DNA of 64,000 bases from Promethearchaeota archaeon (GTDB lineage: Archaea > Asgardarchaeota > Lokiarchaeia > Sigyniarchaeales > SOKP01), in assembly GCA_016840085.1 (NCBI GenBank), contig JAEOTA010000004.1, positions 15,809 through 79,808 of the forward strand, read 5' to 3'. Below the pieces are notes generated by a model. It was not told the origin of the DNA. It saw only the letters and a list, made by a program, of their open reading frames with translations, and searched no databases. The position numbers and the translations under genes are program-made. Below are positions 1,733-53,687 of the stretch, one piece after another (within the stretch, counting starts at the first letter, position 1; each line of letters starts with the position of its first letter).

Positions 1733-3724
1733 ATGTCTACTAAAAAAGAAAGGATTGTATTTGACGCAAATTTCTTTATTTGCATGTTGCGAATAAAAGC
1801 GCGAAGTATATTAAAAAATTTAGAAAAAGCTGGAGAAGATTTAAAGTACGAGTACTATATCTCTGAAGTTGTATTTGATGAGATTAGAGCACCACCAACG
1901 TACAAAGAGAAGTTAAAGACCATCATAAATGTAAAAAAAGTATCTAATGTTGAAGTTGATGCTGTTAAAGATGATCTTAGTCAATATAACATTAAATTTC
2001 CTGCTCAAGATCCTGATCTCTCATTAATTTATATTGGAAAGAGACTATTAACTGAAGATGAGTCACTACCAGTTCATCTTGTTACTGACGATTTTAAATT
2101 AGTAAAAAACGCAGGTTTTCTCTATAAAGGTAAAATCAATATTTTATCTCTTTCTAGCTTTCTTCTAAAATTACAGAAATCAACAAACAACTCCCAAATG
2201 AGAACTTATTTCAAAGATATTTGGAAACGAAGCTTAAACTATACTTTATCTTATATGATTGAGCGTTCTAAGATTTATCCTGCTGAACAAAAAATAACTT
2301 GGATAATTGAGAGAGCTGTGGCTGTTACGGAGGATTCAGTTATATCTAGCGATATTGAATTAGAAAATCCAGATGTGGGTGTAAAGTTTGAAGTAGGAAC
2401 TTCAAAATATGCTGAAGAGATTAAAATTGCTGAGAAATATATTGCTAATCAGGATCTTCCTCAGAGCGAAGAAGAGAAGGTAGTAGGTATTTTGAAATTT
2501 CTTGAAAACTTGAAAATATCACGAGAGTATGTAATTCGAGCTCGTGAAGCAATAATTAAAAGTGTACCAAAAGAAGCAGTTAAATCCTTAAAAAAAGGTA
2601 ATGGATTTTTGGTCTCTTTACTTCAAGTAGCCTCAGGGCAATTAACTGATTTAAAGGATTATAAAATTGTTGAACAATTAATATGCTCTGAAATAAGTAA
2701 AATGGAATTTTTACGAGCATTTTTATTAGTTTCTCTTGGTAGAGTAAATGATGCAATTGATTCACTTGAAAGAGCAGCTCTTTTTTCAACAATTATTTAT
2801 AATTATAAAACTTGTTTAACTCTAAATTACGTAAAAGCATTAATCCTTCTTTTTCATGGATTGTACGAAAATGCTATAAGGCAATATAATTTTACAGAGG
2901 AGTTAGCTGATATATATGAAGATAGTATGTTAAAATTAAAATGCTTAATAGGTAAAGCTATAGCTCTTTATATACAAGGTGAAGATAAGAAAGCAGCAAT
3001 TACGATAATGGAGGAAATATCAACTATGGATTTAGATGAAAATTTCCTAGATGCAATTATTGTGTTTAGTGAGCTTGGTGATTATTTCTTGGCAATGGGG
3101 CATTCTCAAATCGCTGCTAATTTATATAATCAAGCTTTAGAGATATCTATTGACTATAAATTAGGATTTAAAAGTGAGATTTTGATAGGGAAATTAAAAA
3201 GAGCTTATATAGCAACCGTACTAGAAGGTTATAGCACAGAATATATGATTGATAAATTGGATCTTTTATTAGATAAAGCTTATGCCGTTAAGGATGTAGA
3301 AAAATATAATGAACAAATAAAAAAGATATCTAGCTTTAATATGCTTTTTTATACCCCTTTTGAATACATCTCAGGAAAGAATAAGATAATACCTTACTTT
3401 AAACTTCCAAAAGAACTTAAAGAAGATTACTTAGAAGTTGTATATTTTGAAAAAAATAAGCAAAAAGAAGATGTAATTTTTTTCATCGTTTCTCATTATG
3501 AATTAGGTTTACTAGGGATTAGATTAAAAACAAGTGAAAATGTTTCTGGAATAGCAGAAAATTATTCTTTAAAAATAAAGCCAACAGCTAAAGTAAAGAT
3601 TTATAAACCAGACGAAAATTTAAGAGAAAGTTACCTAATACGGGCTATTATTGAAATAACAGCTAAGGATCAGGTTTTAATTGAATATACTCTTCCTTCC
3701 TTTTTTAAACAATTAAATTTATGA
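1733..3724 (+). CDS. PIN-domain protein with a long helical-repeat (TPR-like) region
   Basis: The N-terminus RIVFDANFFI...HLVTDDFKLV has the acidic-residue pattern of PIN nucleases. The middle of the protein looks like helical repeats. The C-terminal ~120 aa are unassigned. Confidence 0.5.
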   Translation: MSTKKERIVFDANFFICMLRIKARSILKNLEKAGEDLKYEYYISEVVFDEIRAPPTYKEKLKTIINVKKVSNVEVDAVKDDLSQYNIKFPAQDPDLSLIYIGKRLLTEDESLPVHLVTDDFKLVKNAGFLYKGKINILSLSSFLLKLQKSTNNSQMRTYFKDIWKRSLNYTLSYMIERSKIYPAEQKITWIIERAVAVTEDSVISSDIELENPDVGVKFEVGTSKYAEEIKIAEKYIANQDLPQSEEEKVVGILKFLENLKISREYVIRAREAIIKSVPKEAVKSLKKGNGFLVSLLQVASGQLTDLKDYKIVEQLICSEISKMEFLRAFLLVSLGRVNDAIDSLERAALFSTIIYNYKTCLTLNYVKALILLFHGLYENAIRQYNFTEELADIYEDSMLKLKCLIGKAIALYIQGEDKKAAITIMEEISTMDLDENFLDAIIVFSELGDYFLAMGHSQIAANLYNQALEISIDYKLGFKSEILIGKLKRAYIATVLEGYSTEYMIDKLDLLLDKAYAVKDVEKYNEQIKKISSFNMLFYTPFEYISGKNKIIPYFKLPKELKEDYLEVVYFEKNKQKEDVIFFIVSHYELGLLGIRLKTSENVSGIAENYSLKIKPTAKVKIYKPDENLRESYLIRAIIEITAKDQVLIEYTLPSFFKQLNL

Positions 3725-4865: not shown

Positions 4866-4928
4866 ATTGAATTCAAAGCCTTAATAATGTGATTATAATT
4901 TTAAAAGAACTTTATAATAAAAAATTTA

Positions 4929-5525
4929 TTATAATGCTATTAGGTATAATTTTAACAACCGAATAACGGAGGAAGCTAAATATGATTGGGTTCCTATGCT
5001 GATTTTTGGAAGCTTTAATGCTAATAATTCCTTAGAATCAATAAACTCACCCCCTTGACTTCCTACTATGAAAATAATATTTTCTCTTTCTTGCATCTTA
5101 CTTCTCAATTTGAAAAAATTTTCTCCTTTTTCATCTAAAATATATAAAGCATATTTCAAATTTCTAAAGTATTTTATAGCATCCATTATTCTCTTTTCAG
5201 ATTTTTTTATTAAACTCAAAGGATTAGAATCTAGATTTTTTTTTTCGGAATTTTTTTGGAGGAAATCAACAAAATAATCTGTTAGAAGTATTTCATTCTT
5301 AGGAAAATTCTTATAATTAAATAACTCTGGTTCAAAAATAAATGTCCCATAGTTATCTAAAAATATCCATATCTGAATATTTTTTTCGAAAGCATTCTGA
5401 TCTAATATTGCTGAAAGAATGCATCTTGAAATCACATCTAATCGACCAGAAGATCCGGGAATATCCTTAATTGTGTAGTGATCAATATTAACTGTAGCCG
5501 ATTTAATGAAAAATATTATATTCAT
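4929..5525 (-). CDS. trmY: tRNA (pseudouridine54-N1)-methyltransferase TrmY (SPOUT)
   Basis: The N-terminus FFIKSATVNIDHYTIKDIPGSSGRLDVISRCILSA matches the MJ1640/TrmY signature (LKDLPGSCGRLDLLCRC). Confidence 0.7.
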   Translation of the reverse strand: MNIIFFIKSATVNIDHYTIKDIPGSSGRLDVISRCILSAILDQNAFEKNIQIWIFLDNYGTFIFEPELFNYKNFPKNEILLTDYFVDFLQKNSEKKNLDSNPLSLIKKSEKRIMDAIKYFRNLKYALYILDEKGENFFKLRSKMQERENIIFIVGSQGGEFIDSKELLALKLPKISIGTQSYLASSVIRLLKLYLIAL

Positions 5526-5630
5526 AATTTGCTTAAGCTTAATCTTAATTATTTTTAAATTTATAAGAATTAAAATCTTATATTTAAAATAATCTTATAA
5601 TTAAAAATAAAAATGGATGTGACTATATAA

Positions 5631-6447: not shown

Positions 6448-7188
6448 ATGAAAATACAAAGAGTTTTAGCTTTAACAAAAATGGAACTTAAAAAGGTTGT
6501 TAGAGAACCTGCTTATTTGTTTTTAATGTTATTATTTCCCGCGGTTCTTACATTAATATTTGGATTCTCTTTTGGAGATCCTGAACTTGGTATGTCTTTT
6601 GACTCTATGGTTCCTGGTCTATTTGCATATGCTTGTATTTTTATAATAATGACTGTAGCTCAATCTTTTGCTGACGAACGAGAAGAAGGACTCTTAAAAA
6701 GGATGAATACAACACCAATGACTTCGGGTGAATTCATGGGAAGTAATATAATCTCTAATATGATAATAGCCATTATACAAGTTATAATAGTCTTTTTATT
6801 ATCTCTTTTAATGGGTTTTGAGCATCATGGTGATTTTAGTGGAATTATATTGGCATTTCTTATCATAGCTTTATTTTCTTTAAGTTCTGTTGGATTAGGG
6901 CTTATAACAGCAACTATTTCAAAGACTTCTGGAATAGCCACAGGGATATCATTTATATTTATTCTTCCTCAGATGTTTTTTGGAACCTTTATACCAATTA
7001 CTTCAAATACTCGAGCTATAGCTATGTTTCTTCCAAGTTATTATGTGACTGATGCTTTAACTTCAATCTTTGCTGGTGACCCATTAACTAATATAAATAT
7101 CTTAGTCGATCTTGCTTTTATCTCAATAATTAGCGTAGTAATTGTAATTATTGGGATACAATTATTCAAAAAATTCGGGAATAAATAA
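6448..7188 (+). CDS. ABC-2 type transporter permease
   Basis: Six-TM protein starting immediately after the ATPase stop, in a coupled arrangement. Confidence 0.8.
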   Translation: MKIQRVLALTKMELKKVVREPAYLFLMLLFPAVLTLIFGFSFGDPELGMSFDSMVPGLFAYACIFIIMTVAQSFADEREEGLLKRMNTTPMTSGEFMGSNIISNMIIAIIQVIIVFLLSLLMGFEHHGDFSGIILAFLIIALFSLSSVGLGLITATISKTSGIATGISFIFILPQMFFGTFIPITSNTRAIAMFLPSYYVTDALTSIFAGDPLTNINILVDLAFISIISVVIVIIGIQLFKKFGNK

Positions 7189-7502: not shown

Positions 7503-9479
7503 ATGACTCATAAAATTGTCTATCCCTTTACAGCTATAATAGGCCAAGATTTAATGAAACTAGCTCTGATATTAAATGCAGTAAATCCAAAAATTGGAGG
7601 TGTATTAATTCGTGGAATGAAAGGAACTGCTAAATCAACTGCTGTCAGAGCTTTGGCCGAAATTTTACCTGAAATACAATATATTAAATCATGTTCATTC
7701 AATTGTAATCCCTCAGATCTAAAAGAAATGTGTCATTCTTGTCAAGAAAGATATCAAAACAATCAAATTAATGAGAATGACATCGATACTAAAAAAATGA
7801 GGGTTGTTACTCTTCCTATAAATGCAACTGAAGATAGAGTAGTTGGTACAATTGATATTAAAAGAGCATTAAAGGAAGGATTGAAATTTTTAGAACCTGG
7901 AATTTTAGCTGAAGCTCACAGAAACATTCTTTATATTGATGAGGTTAATCTTTTGGCAGATAACGTTGCAGATATTTTGTTAGATAGTGCTGCTATGGGA
8001 TTAAACATAATTGAACGTGAGGGAATTAGTTTTCATCATCCTTCTTGTTTTATTTTAGTTGGAACAATGAATCCCGAAGAGGGAAATTTAAGACCCCAAC
8101 TCCTTGATCGATTTGGATTGAGTATTGGCGTTGAAAGAATTAAAGATGTTGAGAAAAGGGTACAGATTATTAAAAATGTTGAGGAATTTCAAAACAATCC
8201 TCATTTGTTCTTTAAAAAATTTGAAAAAGAACAAAATAACTTAAGATGTAAGATTATTAATGCTAAAGATCTCTTAAACCAAGTGACTATTTCAGAGGAA
8301 TTCTTAAAAACAATTGCCAAAATCTGTATTGAATTTGAAACAGATGGCCACAGAGCAGATATAACAATCACTCGCACAGCTAAAACTTTAGCCGCATTTG
8401 AAGGAAGAAATGAAGTAACTGAAGAAGATATAAAAATTGCTGCTAAACTTGCTTTAAATCATAGACTAAAAAAATTACCTTTTGAAGATTATTCCTTAGA
8501 TGAACAGGATATTGAAAGTTTTTTTAATAAAAAAGATAATTCCAACGAACCTGAAAATGAAAAAACTATCGAAGAAAATCTTGAGAATAATCAAATTTTT
8601 AATACTCAAGAAGAGGTTTTTGGGATAGATGATTCAGTTAAAACAGAAGATTTAATTAAAGAGAAAAAATACAGGAAAAGGTTAAATGTGTCTGGTCAAA
8701 GAGTGGCACATCCCACTAACGATTCAAAAGGTAAATATATAGGGGGTATTAAGCCTAAAAAGTTCAATTTTTCTTATTCTAATAGTATTGCTATTAATGA
8801 AACCATAAATAAGGCTGCCTTAGATTCTGAAAATCAAGAATTAATCAAAAATGGGAAGAGTATCCTCATTAAGGAAGATCATATTCATTTAAAAAAAAGA
8901 AGGGGAAAATCAAGTTATTTAGTTATTTTTTGTGTTGATGCTTCTGGCTCTATGGGCGTTAATGAACGAATGAAAATTGTCAAAGGTGCAATTTTTTCCC
9001 TTCTTCAAAGTAATTATATTTATAGAGATAAAGTATCTCTTGTAGTTTTTAGAAAAGATAAAGCAGAGGTGATATTGCCGCCAACAAGGAGTACTGATTT
9101 AGCATATAAGTTATTGAAAGATATTCCAACAGGAGGGACTACTCCATTAGTCTCAGGACTAATGAAATCAGTTGAAATTGCCCTCGAAGAGATTCGTAAG
9201 AAGACTGGATATATCCCCTTAATTGTTCTTCTGACAGATGCAAGAGGTAATGTATATTTCAATGATGCAGTTGAAGATATTATTAAAGCTGGTAAATATA
9301 TCGCTAAAAATGAAATTAATATGATCATTATTGATACTGAAAGTTCAGAAATCAAATTAGAAATTAGTAAAAAACTATCAGAAGTATCAAATGCAGCTTA
9401 TTACCATATCGATAATCTAAATGAAGTCAATCTAAACCGAGTTTTATCTTTAGAGGGAATTTGTGAAGATAAGGATTAA
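7503..9479 (+). CDS. ChlI/ChlD-type chelatase subunit (AAA+ ATPase fused to a VWA domain)
   Basis: Walker [10 protein letters not shown], Walker [11 protein letters not shown], Cys-rich insert CSFNC..CHSC, and a C-terminal VWA domain with MIDAS motif DASGSM. Confidence 0.85.
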
Positions 9480-49976: not shown

Positions 49977-51155
49977 ATGAAAGCTGTAGAATTATCTGCA
50001 AAATGGGATCCAAAACCAGATTTTAAACTTGGATCCAAAGATATAGAAGGAAAATTAACTTATTTAGGTTCTCAAGTATGGCGTAATCCTGTCGTTAAGG
50101 TACGAGAAAAAGATAAACCTCAAATTAAACCAAATGAAGTATTGGTTAAAGTAAAAAGGTGCGGAATTTGTGGCTCAGATGTCCATATGGCTCAAACATA
50201 TGAAGATGGTTACATTTATTACCCTGGTTTGACAGCTTTTCCTGTCACTCTTGGACATGAGTTTGCTGGGGAGATTATAGAAGTTGGAAAAAAAGCAATT
50301 AATAAGAGAACTGGAAAACTTTATAAAACAGGAGAACCAGTCACAGTAGAAGAGATGGTTTGGTGTGGCGAATGTAAACCTTGTTGTGATGGGTTTCCAA
50401 ATCACTGTGAAAGATTACAAGAAATAGGATTTTCTATTGATGGTGCATACGCTGAATTTATTGCTGTTCCAGCAAAATTATGTTGGAGTTTGAAGAAGTT
50501 AGAACAGAAATATGAAGATGTTTTTAAAATTGGCAGTTTAGTAGAACCAACTTCAGTAGCATATAACGCAGTTATAGAAAGAGGTGGTGGAATTCGACCT
50601 GGTGAAAATGTCATTATATTAGGTGGAGGACCCATTGGCTTAGCAGCAACGAAGATTTTAAAAACTGCAGGAGCTGCTGTATGTATCGTTTCAGAACCAG
50701 AGGAGACTAGAGCTTCAATAGCTAAAAAATTAGGTGCTGACTATGTAATTAATCCCATTAAGGAAGATTTTGTTGAAAAAGTAAAAGAATATACTGATAA
50801 CGAAGGAGCTACTCTCTATCTTGAAGCAACTGGATTACCAGATATTGTAACAGATGATATACAAAATACAATATGGGAATGTAAAACTGTTAATAGTACA
50901 GTAGTTATTGTAGCAAGAGCAGAACAAAGAATGCCCGTTTGTGGAGAATATTTCCAAGTTAGGAGAGCTCGCATCGTTGGTTCTCAAGGGCATTCTGGCC
51001 ATGGTAATTTTCCAAACGTCATTAGTTGTATGGCCGCTGGCATGGATCTTATTCCGATGATTACAAAAGAGATAAGTCTTGATGAAGTCCCTGAAAATTT
51101 GAAATTATTACTATCCGATCGAGAAAATTGTAAAATATCTTCAGTAATAGGTTAA
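49977..51155 (+). CDS. zinc-dependent alcohol/polyol dehydrogenase (MDR family)
   Basis: GICGSDVHM, GHEFAGEI, structural-Zn cysteines CGECKPCC..C, and GGGPIGL. Confidence 0.85.
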   Translation: MKAVELSAKWDPKPDFKLGSKDIEGKLTYLGSQVWRNPVVKVREKDKPQIKPNEVLVKVKRCGICGSDVHMAQTYEDGYIYYPGLTAFPVTLGHEFAGEIIEVGKKAINKRTGKLYKTGEPVTVEEMVWCGECKPCCDGFPNHCERLQEIGFSIDGAYAEFIAVPAKLCWSLKKLEQKYEDVFKIGSLVEPTSVAYNAVIERGGGIRPGENVIILGGGPIGLAATKILKTAGAAVCIVSEPEETRASIAKKLGADYVINPIKEDFVEKVKEYTDNEGATLYLEATGLPDIVTDDIQNTIWECKTVNSTVVIVARAEQRMPVCGEYFQVRRARIVGSQGHSGHGNFPNVISCMAAGMDLIPMITKEISLDEVPENLKLLLSDRENCKISSVIG

Positions 51156-51207
51156 AAATGTAGTCAATAAAAATATTATATTTTTTTTTTAATTTTTTAA
51201 ATAAAAC

Positions 51208-52623
51208 TTAAATCCTAGATCTTTTTAAAGAATTTCTCTTATTAAAGGGAGGAACCGAATTAATACAATTTTTAAAAACTTCTTTCATTAAATTTTCACC
51301 TAAAGAGAGCATGAATGCTAGACCTTTACTACCATCTTTTCTAATAGTTTCTTTTTGACGAATTTCATATTTGATATCAAATTTTCCTTTAATATCCTCT
51401 AAGAATTTTTTGCTCCCACTTGTTATAAGAGTTTTTCCTTTCGACCCATCTCCGTCCCAATAACCAAGTAAAAACCCTAAATATATATTTAAGCTTGCTT
51501 TTAACTCTGGTAATCTTATATTAGAAGATTTGTTTTTCCCAACTATAAAACCAAGATTTTTCAAGTGTTGTACAAATTTTTTGCTTTTAAATTGAATCCT
51601 AATAGTGTCTTTAAATTCGAAATGCTCATCATAATTAAAATTAGAATCAATTATAGATACAATTCTAAAATGCGTAATTTTGTTAATTTTATGTATATCA
51701 AAACCAATATCCTTAGCAAACTTCAGTATGAGGTCTTGTGCATCATTGGACATTTCAATACCGAATATAACTTGATTAGAGTTTTTATCTAGAGTCATAT
51801 ATCCATCAGCGAAGATTAGTCCTAACCAATAACCTTTTAGTACAGAATTAATATTTTTAAAGTAATCCTCATTAAATTCTGATTGATGTCTTAAAATACC
51901 TTGGTTTGATTTTGGTAAGTCATTGAATTCACGATAACGGCTAAAAATATCTATTATAGTTGTTAAATCTAAATCCTGAAGCTTTCTTATTAAATTGTTT
52001 TCAAATTCTTGTAAAACATTTTCTGAAAACAGATAATGAGGATTATTATGAATATCGTATATACGGTCAGTTATATATGCGTTATATTTTCCAATTAGTC
52101 TACTCAGTGAATAATTTGTAATTTCAATTGATGCCTCTCTAAAAGTGATTATCTTTGTAATTTTTCGTTTTAGTTGCTCAATAAATTTCAACTGTTTACG
52201 AGGTGTAGTAAGTGTATTAAATAAATCTAAGCTATTCTTATAACTATAAGTTTCAATGAGATAGAAAATATTTTGACTTAATATTCCAAATCTTTGTTCT
52301 AAAGTTTTTTTCCATTTTTTTATTATTTTTTTTGAAATTTGAAAACTAGGATCATTATTAATTTTTAATTTTATATTTTGTGTAATATATTGATCAGAAT
52401 ATCCCAATATTCGACTTAATTCTTTATCAGTTAATTTAATAGACACCAAGGAGAGATGTACTATTCTTTCGATTTCGTGTTTTAAATCGTATATAAAATC
52501 TATCGTATTATAGCTAATATGTCTAATAGGCTTCTCAGAAAATTTACTGCTGCCAAAATATTTCCATTTAGAATGAAATACAAAAAAATCGGGATCTTCT
52601 TGATTGGCAATAATCTTTAACAT
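51208..52623 (-). mobile_element. free-standing double-motif LAGLIDADG homing-endonuclease-like gene with N-terminal duplicated HTH-like segments
   Basis: Two LAGLIDADG motifs, YWLGLIFADGYM and YLGFLLGYWDGDGSKG, about 110 aa apart. It is wedged between an intact gene and a relic of that gene's 3' end. Confidence 0.7.
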
Positions 52624-52824
52624 TTTCTCTTAAAACTTTTTAAATTTTTTTCAATTATCTCTAAAACTATAGATTTTTAACCTAAAAAGCCGTGATTTAA
52701 TTTTACAATCTCTCTCTTTTTATTAGATTCATTTTCGTGTATTATTAGTTATAATTTGCTTATGAATTTAAAAGAAAAGACTGTAAAATATTAGTAAAAA
52801 ATAAAATATTAGTAAAACGATCAC

Positions 52825-52964
52825 AAATTTGCCCCTATAGTGATAAAAGAAATAACATGACCCCAATGATAACAAAAGAAATCTCACTTGACAAAGTTCC
52901 CGAAAATCTTATACTTTTACAAATCGATAAGGAACAATGTAAAATTTCAATCAAACTTAGTTAA
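52825..52964 (+). pseudogene. diverged relic of the 3' end of the Zn-dehydrogenase gene
   Basis: 52857..52964 reads MTPMITKEISLDKVPENLILLQIDKEQCKISIKLS*. The ADH C-terminus is LIPMITKEISLDEVPENLKLLLSDRENCKISSVIG*. Confidence 0.75.
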
Positions 52965-53093
52965 AAAATTAAGAATAATAATCTTCTATTAATTTTTAAA
53001 GATAAAGTAACTCTTAAGAATCATAACTTTTTTATATCATTTTCATCTATTTTTGTTATTCATAAATAATAAATTAGGAAGAGATCTGATAAT

Positions 53094-53687
53094 ATGAATG
53101 AAAATCATAATGAGGAAGAAGATATTGAATTAAATGAAGAAGTTGAAAGCGATAAACAAATTCTTGAAAATAAAAAAAAACAAGAAGAAATTGCTATAAA
53201 AAGAAGAGAGGTTTCTGATTTTAAAACTGAACATCCAGAATCTCTCGAAATTAGCGAAAGTGAACCTTTTTATAGAGCTCCATTAACTAATATTATAGAA
53301 GGCGAAGATGTATATTATATTCTCGTTGAATTACCAGGATTAAATAAAAAAAATGTAAAAATTTCTTTACAAGAAGGAATCTTAGAACTAGTTGGAGAAA
53401 AAGCAATAAAAGAGAAAGAAAAAAAAGACGAGAAGAAGGAGAAAGATAAAAAAGAAAAAAAAGATGAAAAGAAAGAAAAAGACAAGAAAAAAGAAAAAAT
53501 AAAGGAAATTAAAGGGGACTTTTTAAGGAGAGAATTTCGAGTAGCTAACTTCTATAGATGCTTTCAGTTACCTGAAGATGTATCCACTGAAGATATTGAT
53601 GCAAATTTTAAAAATGGTGTTCTACAATTAAAAATGATTAAAAAGACTGCTAAATTAAGAGAAAAGAAACTGATAGAAATCAAATAA
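53094..53687 (+). CDS. small heat-shock protein (Hsp20/alpha-crystallin) with a K/E-rich insertion
   Basis: VYYILVELPGLNKKNVKISL...FRVANFYRCFQLPEDV...ANFKNGVLQLKM, with KEKEKKDEKKEKDKKEKKDEKKEKDKKKEK inserted between them. Confidence 0.8.
   Translation: MNENHNEEEDIELNEEVESDKQILENKKKQEEIAIKRREVSDFKTEHPESLEISESEPFYRAPLTNIIEGEDVYYILVELPGLNKKNVKISLQEGILELVGEKAIKEKEKKDEKKEKDKKEKKDEKKEKDKKKEKIKEIKGDFLRREFRVANFYRCFQLPEDVSTEDIDANFKNGVLQLKMIKKTAKLREKKLIEIK

Follow-up and report, generated by a model that had tools for sequence, protein, structure and literature searches.

A mobile cassette of ~1.8 kb (~51038-52856) has probably invaded the 3' end of a chromosomal zinc-dependent dehydrogenase (ADH) gene in a Promethearchaeota (Asgard) archaeon. 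The gene lies in a 64-kb stretch of contig JAEOTA010000004.1 (64,000 nt, referred to below as the window; coordinates given without a locus name are window positions). The cassette consists of a substitute ADH 3' end, a 52-nt spacer, a convergent LAGLIDADG endonuclease gene and the 233-nt region upstream of that gene, with sharp junctions after 51037 on the left and at ~52857 on the right. A first-pass annotation made from the sequence alone had described a Zn-ADH gene, an opposite-strand LAGLIDADG gene and a relic copy of the ADH C-terminus in this order, and all three open reading frames (ORFs) were found where it had placed them (Table 1). It had also proposed that a cassette bringing its own replacement 3' end had entered the host gene and pushed the original end downstream. 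This proposal is now backed by empty sites in related genomes, by the mosaic structure of ADH and by a relic of native type, 87-90% identical to relatives and contiguous with the native intergenic region.

Origin of the two ADH ends

The window was recognised as chromosomal Promethearchaeota DNA by its synteny with several contigs of Asgard metagenome-assembled genomes (MAGs), which extend up to 160 kb; the source contig is 316 kb, and the G+C content of the window is 29.5%. Hundreds of ADH orthologues, named scyllo-inosose 3-dehydrogenase by NCBI, were found at 82-93% identity in Promethearchaeota, Lokiarchaeia and other Asgard MAGs. The genetic context was compared, as the first-pass annotation had suggested, with orthologous loci in three related contigs, L001 (JGI Ga0326314_1000155), L002 (GCA_048940925.1) and L003 (GCA_048937845.1), and the gene order in all three matches that of the window (GFO/IDH/MocA oxidoreductase, MFS transporter, ADH, HSP20, xylose-isomerase-like TIM barrel, creatininase). 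None of the three carries the endonuclease gene, and HSP20 starts only ~100-130 nt after the ADH stop; in the window, it starts 129 nt after the relic stop. The same ADH site is therefore polymorphic for presence of the insert, which is found in the window and in none of the syntenic L001, L002 and L003. The endonuclease-free ADH 3' sequence can be seen in L001 (region 3120-3220), where it contains GCAGGAATGGATATAACGCCTATGATAACAAAAGAAATC.

L001 is the nearest relative and was used for the comparisons of identity, synonymous divergence and breakpoints. Over nt 1 to ~1050, 90-nt windows of ADH share 92-98% identity with L001, whereas the last 90 nt of the resident gene are only 69% identical, in a stretch where L001 and L002 are 86-91% identical to each other. 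The breakpoint test that had been recommended for the ADH end was performed using the maximum chi-squared method, and placed the change at ~51037/51038, with 5.9% differences before and 31.4% after window position 51037 (permutation p<=0.001). The last ~35 codons are judged to be foreign. In the last 32 codons of the resident gene, the proportion of synonymous differences (pS) is saturated at 0.74, compared with 0.19 in the gene body (Fisher p=6e-7). Two residues of the resident end are peculiar to it, an L where all orthologues (116/116) have Q and an S, replacing T, that no orthologue (0/116) shares. It otherwise resembles lineages in which the gene body is only 85-87% identical, shares R23, N25 and E11 with distant lineages, and includes a Ser codon switch from AGT to TCA. 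This end (...LLLSDRENCKISSVIG), best read as imported from a divergent allele, is joined in frame, and the hybrid ORF of 392 aa has the length of its orthologues.

A tblastn search of the entire 64-kb window with ADH as the query detected the relic with an E value of 1.7e-8 and 72% identity over 32 aa, indicating that it is not a chance similarity. A repeat finder identified an 86-nt direct repeat in the same places (51054-51139 and 52863-52948, 71% identical). The portion of the resident end duplicated in the relic is ~51049-51155, and similarity to ADH stops at ~52857 with none further upstream. Where 23 of 34 residues had been reported as identical between the ADH end and the relic, a recount gave 23 of 32 in the core. 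The relic shares 87% (111 nt) or 89.6% (96 nt) identity with the L001 3' end but only 64-66% with the resident end, and its pS of 0.32 against L001 is not different from that of the gene body (p=0.23). Homology to L001 resumes at ~52857 and runs on through the native intergenic region, and the intergenic stretch adjoining the relic is 88.5-90.9% identical. At the protein level, two rare states, K11 (13/116) and Q25 (4/116), link the relic to P0009 and P0010, the nearest relatives. As the relic is close to relatives and the resident end is saturated, the sequences indicate that the relic is the native ADH end, displaced 1.8 kb downstream and decaying, and that the resident end was imported. Two changes in the relic at otherwise conserved positions, T to I (0/116 orthologues) and K to I (only 4/116, including P0037 and P0047), are expected of a piece that is no longer under selection, and the relic is probably not part of any expressed protein.

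An origin of both ends within this genome was also considered, i.e. tandem duplication of the ADH 3' end, with the endonuclease gene then arriving between the copies and the resident copy diverging fast. This alternative has been discussed for some mitochondrial hybrids (PMC3630166), and fits with the finding of no donor sequence among the orthologues compared. However, protein-level selection cannot produce a contrast such as that between the resident end and the adjoining gene body in pS, and the AGT to TCA switch, the abrupt change in divergence at the breakpoint and the presence of the residues R23, N25 and E11 in distant lineages also speak against it, making a local duplication very unlikely.

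To look for a donor, the C-termini of 10 cluster members were compared with the resident end in addition to those of the 116 orthologues. The best match was 28/32 aa, in the lineages with 85-87% body identity, but these were rejected as the donor as their DNA (L172, L173) is only 72-77% identical. Short ORFs matching a 42-aa query from the resident C-terminus were considered as further relics and rejected, as they belong to ADH genes with 30-nt insertions.

As the window derives from a metagenome-assembled contig, an assembly chimera of two strains or species could in principle create an apparent duplication. However, an independent Logan assembly of SRR14699980 (L004, 2156 nt) matches window positions 50899-53054, from the ADH end across the endonuclease gene to the relic, with 100% identity, and this 2156-nt arrangement was recorded for three samples, hence it is not peculiar to one assembly. 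With clean junctions and both flanks collinear with related genomes, a chimera is highly improbable.

Table 1. Features of the ADH locus in the window
Feature	Coordinates	Strand	Details
Whole ADH ORF	49977-51155	+	392 aa; Pfam ADH_N and ADH_zinc_N
Native part of ADH	49977-51037	+	92-98% DNA identity to L001 (90-nt windows); pS 0.19, proportion of nonsynonymous differences (pN) 0.024; Pfam ADH_N, ADH_zinc_N
Substitute ADH 3' end, judged to be imported	51038-51155	+	In frame; ~35-39 codons and stop
AT-rich spacer, part of cassette	51156-51207		52 nt; separates two convergent stop codons
Free-standing double-motif LAGLIDADG gene	51208-52623	-	471 aa; Pfam LAGLIDADG_3
Region 5' of endonuclease gene, right-hand part of cassette	52624-52856		233 nt; no homology to endonuclease-free loci
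Relic, judged to be the displaced native ADH 3' end	52857-52964	+	Open ORF; 35 codons and stop
Native ADH-HSP20 intergenic region	52965-53093		Abuts relic; 88.5% identical to 128-nt L001 spacer
HSP20 gene, conserved downstream neighbour	53094-53687	+	Pfam HSP20; right edge of disturbed region

The spacer between the convergent stop codons includes T-runs on both strands and has no homology to the ADH-HSP20 spacer of L001. The promoter of the endonuclease gene is presumably located in the 233-nt region upstream of it. An imperfect 22-nt direct repeat (77% identical) is present at the right junction, with one copy just within the cassette edge (52832-52853; CCCCTATAGTGATAAAAGAAAT) and the other at the start of the relic (52861-52882; CCCCAATGATAACAAAAGAAAT). 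It could be a scar from an earlier junction or have arisen by chance in AT-rich DNA.

The endonuclease and the proposed route of insertion

The LAGLIDADG_3 match in the 471-aa product covers only the second motif (E 3.4e-9). The two motifs are LGLIFADGY, which includes D273 (51805-51807), and LGYWDGDGS, which includes D392 (51448-51450). When the protein is aligned with seven homologues (alignment A2), neither the two Asp residues nor the Gly residues around them vary, and the ORF is intact; absence of the catalytic acidic residues, which the first-pass annotation had named as a finding that would speak against its proposal, is thus not seen. By its motifs, the protein would be a monomeric two-motif LAGLIDADG homing endonuclease. 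The LAGLIDADG core was assigned to aa ~251-455 (51259-51873), and an AlphaFold model built from a shallow 8-sequence alignment has predicted local distance difference test (pLDDT) values of 80-90 over aa ~250-450. Foldseek matched the modelled core to bI3 maturase, I-SceI, I-WcaI and PI-SceI in the PDB with a probability of 1.0 and E values of 2e-6 to 2e-4, the target TM-scores being 0.35-0.46. The predicted core fold is pseudo-dimeric, with the order alpha-beta-beta-alpha-beta-beta-alpha.

The N-terminal helical region (aa 1-250; 51874-52623, minus strand) belongs to no Pfam family, and a match to Pfam RuvC_1 was rejected as it scored 16 bits against a cutoff of 26. The region includes two tandem helical repeats of ~50 aa (aa ~62-110 and ~165-212) that are 33% identical over 49 aa, whereas homologues have a single N-terminal module. 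The modules may represent a duplicated accessory DNA-binding domain.

In the route of insertion proposed here, the endonuclease would cut alleles that lack the cassette near ADH codon ~357, and the break would be repaired from a cassette-carrying allele, with the ADH body as the left homology arm and the relic together with the intergenic region as the right arm. The cassette would be copied in, and its heavily recoded end would keep the host gene whole and, together with the insertion, remove the target site. Under this model the relic would be kept beside the cassette, and would look no older than the neutral divergence between close relatives. An active endonuclease, its target site, homing as the route of spread and a functional hybrid ADH are all presumed.

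Neither terminal inverted repeats nor a transposase domain were found at the cassette, where the only inverted repeats are at the level expected by chance in AT-rich DNA. A DNA transposon or insertion sequence was rejected, as none of its signatures (terminal inverted repeats, target-site duplication, transposase) was found.

Several points weigh against the invasion of ADH by a mobile cassette. Comparison with ~135 orthologues yielded no lineage that could have donated the imported end, loss of the Q conserved in 116/116 orthologues may impair the hybrid enzyme, and pLDDT is <50 across aa 1-250 of the modelled endonuclease. A second ADH locus with the element was not found in the protein database, species-representative genomes, metagenome contigs or viral contigs, and the closest homologue of the endonuclease is only 33-38% identical. 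Divergent host backgrounds with the same element at the same site were likewise not found in the databases searched, and the foreign 3' end is indirect evidence of transfer.

Related endonuclease genes and their host genes

Homologues of the endonuclease in the protein database were few and distant (28-35% identity). Pattern scans identified ~40 loci in Promethearchaeota, Thor-, Hel-, Hermod- and Heimdall-type MAGs and in metagenome contigs, at 24-38% identity and with matches that often reach into the N-terminal region. The homologues are concentrated in Asgard MAGs. The viral contigs searched gave no indication of a reservoir of the family, matching only the generic LAGLIDADG core (aa ~245-412) at ~30% identity.

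To screen for recurrence, the two sides of the endonuclease gene were compared for coding similarity at 51 family loci, not all of them Asgard, and the same was done for 65 virtual inserts placed elsewhere in the same loci as controls. Flanking duplications were found at 10 of the 51 family loci but at only two of the 65 controls (Fisher p=0.005), and involve at least five other host genes. The window is thus one instance of a recurring pattern. The native and the imported copy were resolved at the window ADH only.

In a first group of loci the layout is that of the window, i.e. a full host gene is convergent with the endonuclease gene and a 3' relic lies past the start of the endonuclease gene. 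The host gene encodes an AMP-binding enzyme in L012 (39-aa relic, 87% identical), a radical-SAM protein in L102 (35-aa relic, 57% identical) and a D12 methyltransferase in L008 and L010 (C-terminal relic of 130-140 aa, 60-63% identical). The distance from the stop of the host gene to that of the endonuclease gene is 52 nt in the window, and the two are 23-44 nt apart or overlap in L012, L102 and L008. A C-terminal duplication of an aldolase-like gene, with the endonuclease gene in the same orientation, was found in L035 and L040, and the N-terminus is duplicated in DUF1848 genes (L042, L047) and in a D12 methyltransferase gene (L024). The remaining positive, L110, is a metagenome contig in which tRNA-like repeats (5243-5398 and 6910-7065; GVEPTRP) flank the endonuclease gene within an array of six tRNA genes. 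This repeat translates like tRNA-derived sequence and was not counted as a gene-end duplication; the insertion in L110 may have occurred into or beside a tRNA gene rather than a protein-coding gene.

The recurrence bears on whether the endonuclease was involved at all. The cassette could have arrived once, by ordinary horizontal transfer or by one homologous and one illegitimate recombination event, with an endonuclease that played no part and is now inactive or has been repurposed for DNA binding or regulation via its large N-terminal domain. The element was seen in one genome lineage only, and the N-terminal 250 aa with their two repeated helical modules are unusual, both of which fit a single arrival. 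However, the ORF is intact with no variation at the catalytic Asp residues, and the imported end is tightly linked to the endonuclease gene in the window, L012, L102 and L008. The footprint is also found with other family members at other genes, at a rate far above that of the controls, which suggests that the endonuclease drives insertion. A single arrival is therefore considered unlikely, though less so than the other alternatives weighed here.

In P0002, P0005 and P0006, the LAGLIDADG gene is in each case convergent with a D12 (Dam-like) methyltransferase gene, raising the question of whether it is part of a restriction-modification-like or defence/addiction module instead of a homing element. 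This also appears very improbable, as no methyltransferase gene adjoins the endonuclease gene in the window, and the methyltransferase gene in L008 and L010 itself shows the footprint of a host gene. A methyltransferase gene with a displaced C-terminal relic would be a target and not a partner.

Further details were observed at individual loci. In the P0002 loci (L005-L007), the endonuclease gene is convergent with a D12 methyltransferase gene and directly beside a gene for a PFL-like glycyl-radical enzyme, and no relic was detected; deletion of the relic or a different kind of insertion could account for this. In L008, besides the C-terminal relic (5112-5600, minus strand), a 23-aa fragment (9092-9160, minus strand) is 70% identical to the N-terminus of the D12 methyltransferase and lies beyond an adjoining 295-aa gene that has no assigned function, suggesting a second rearrangement at the other end of the methyltransferase gene. 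In L040, the aldolase-like gene (4906-5615) shifts frame at ~5460-5472, where the duplicated C-terminal segment starts, which is due either to an out-of-frame junction that disrupted the gene or to a sequencing error.

It is an evenly balanced question whether these loci make up a family, so far undescribed and concentrated in Asgard genomes, of free-standing LAGLIDADG homing genes that colonise the ends of chromosomal genes using replacement ends. The hosts of such a family would be dehydrogenase, Dam-like methyltransferase, acyl-CoA-synthetase-like, radical-SAM, DUF1848 and aldolase-like genes. The replacement end carried by its members would be a 3' end or, at some loci, a 5' end, and the members would move short coding segments between species and leave relics behind, making them an archaeal chromosomal counterpart of mitochondrial mobile ORFs.

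Relation to known systems

Fungal mitochondria, with their mobile endonuclease ORFs (mORFs), provide the closest precedent, and the statement in the first-pass annotation that such behaviour is known in organelles was correct (PMC3630166). The mORFs make hybrid genes of atp6 in Allomyces macrogynus and of atp6, atp9, cox2 and nad3 in Glomus sp., and in these hybrids the native C-termini are 91-98% and the inserted ones 64-81% identical to relatives (PMC3630166). In Endoconidiophora resinifera, partial C-terminal duplications of cob and atp6 are found beside degenerate endonuclease ORFs (PMC6279837). As in the window, a foreign C-terminal segment is joined in frame with a LAGLIDADG ORF adjacent (or, for mORFs, also a GIY-YIG ORF), this ORF separates the inserted from the native C-terminus, and the displaced native end is closer to relatives; the corresponding figures for the window are 87-90% for the native and 69% for the inserted end. 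However, the window is from an archaeal chromosome and not an organelle, and the host gene encodes a sugar-metabolism dehydrogenase. In the window, the endonuclease gene runs opposite to its host gene and has an upstream region of its own, whereas mORFs are co-transcribed, in some cases as in-phase fusions. The 250-aa N-terminal extension of the window protein, and the concentration of its family in Asgard genomes, are further differences.

The seg and mob genes of T-even phages undergo intronless homing with co-conversion of flanking markers. Like the gene in the window, free-standing homing endonuclease genes (HEGs) of phages are located between conserved genes or at their edge. A free-standing example at the psbA intron site, F-CphI, is cited in PMC6279837 (refs 64-66). 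Phage HEGs spread by double-strand-break repair with co-conversion, the carrier being immune through sequence differences, and the same is supposed for the window. However, they are usually intergenic, are mostly of the GIY-YIG or HNH type and are usually found without a displaced duplicate of a gene end, whereas the window is part of a cellular archaeal chromosome.

LAGLIDADG endonucleases of archaea are found in rRNA introns and inteins, examples being I-DmoI and PI-PfuI. They are members of the same superfamily, with a monomeric two-motif architecture and an archaeal host as in the window. Group I intron endonuclease genes have also been reported in archaea (PMC6125680). However, the intron and intein endonucleases reside inside a self-splicing element that keeps the host gene intact, whereas the element in the window appears to carry a replacement gene end for this purpose. 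No description of Asgard or Lokiarchaeota LAGLIDADG genes, or of free-standing archaeal HEGs of this kind, was found in the full-text literature searched, which leaves most subscription journals uncovered.

A homing life without an intron or intein, in which a replacement gene end is carried, has so far been seen only in fungal mitochondria and loosely in phages, and the cassette would extend it to Asgard chromosomes. It would also provide a concrete route for the exchange of short coding segments between archaeal species, and account for the small orphan ORFs in these genomes that duplicate the ends of genes. A convergent LAGLIDADG gene together with a displaced copy of a gene end could serve as a diagnostic in annotation. 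The family would further offer a natural set of endonucleases with targets that can be read from empty-site alleles, i.e. testable and potentially useful rare cutters.

In the gene downstream of the relic, the encoded HSP20 protein (53094-53687, plus strand) includes a long low-complexity insert rich in Lys, Glu and Asp (KEKEKKDEKKEKDKKEKKDEKKEKDKKKEK) within the match to the alpha-crystallin domain.

In several Asgard genomes, the syntenic ADH gene is broken by one or two insertions of 29-30 nt that introduce in-frame stops or a frameshift. They were found at 5140-5180 and 5975-6010 in L254, at the same positions in L257 and at 1100-1140 in L259, the window equivalents being ~50178 and 50987/50988. 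The first lies between the sequences encoding CGICGSD and VHMAQTY and the second between those encoding RIVGAQ and GHSGHG. The second insertion includes a hairpin stem that co-varies between genomes (GACAG/CTGTC, TTAAATAG/CTATTTAA and TTAAGA/TCTTAA) and a conserved 3' GTGYAT, and the exon sequences flanking the insertions are able to pair. The insertions look like mini-introns of the bulge-helix-bulge type in a protein-coding gene. In the window, the cassette junction follows the site of the second insertion after only ~60 nt.

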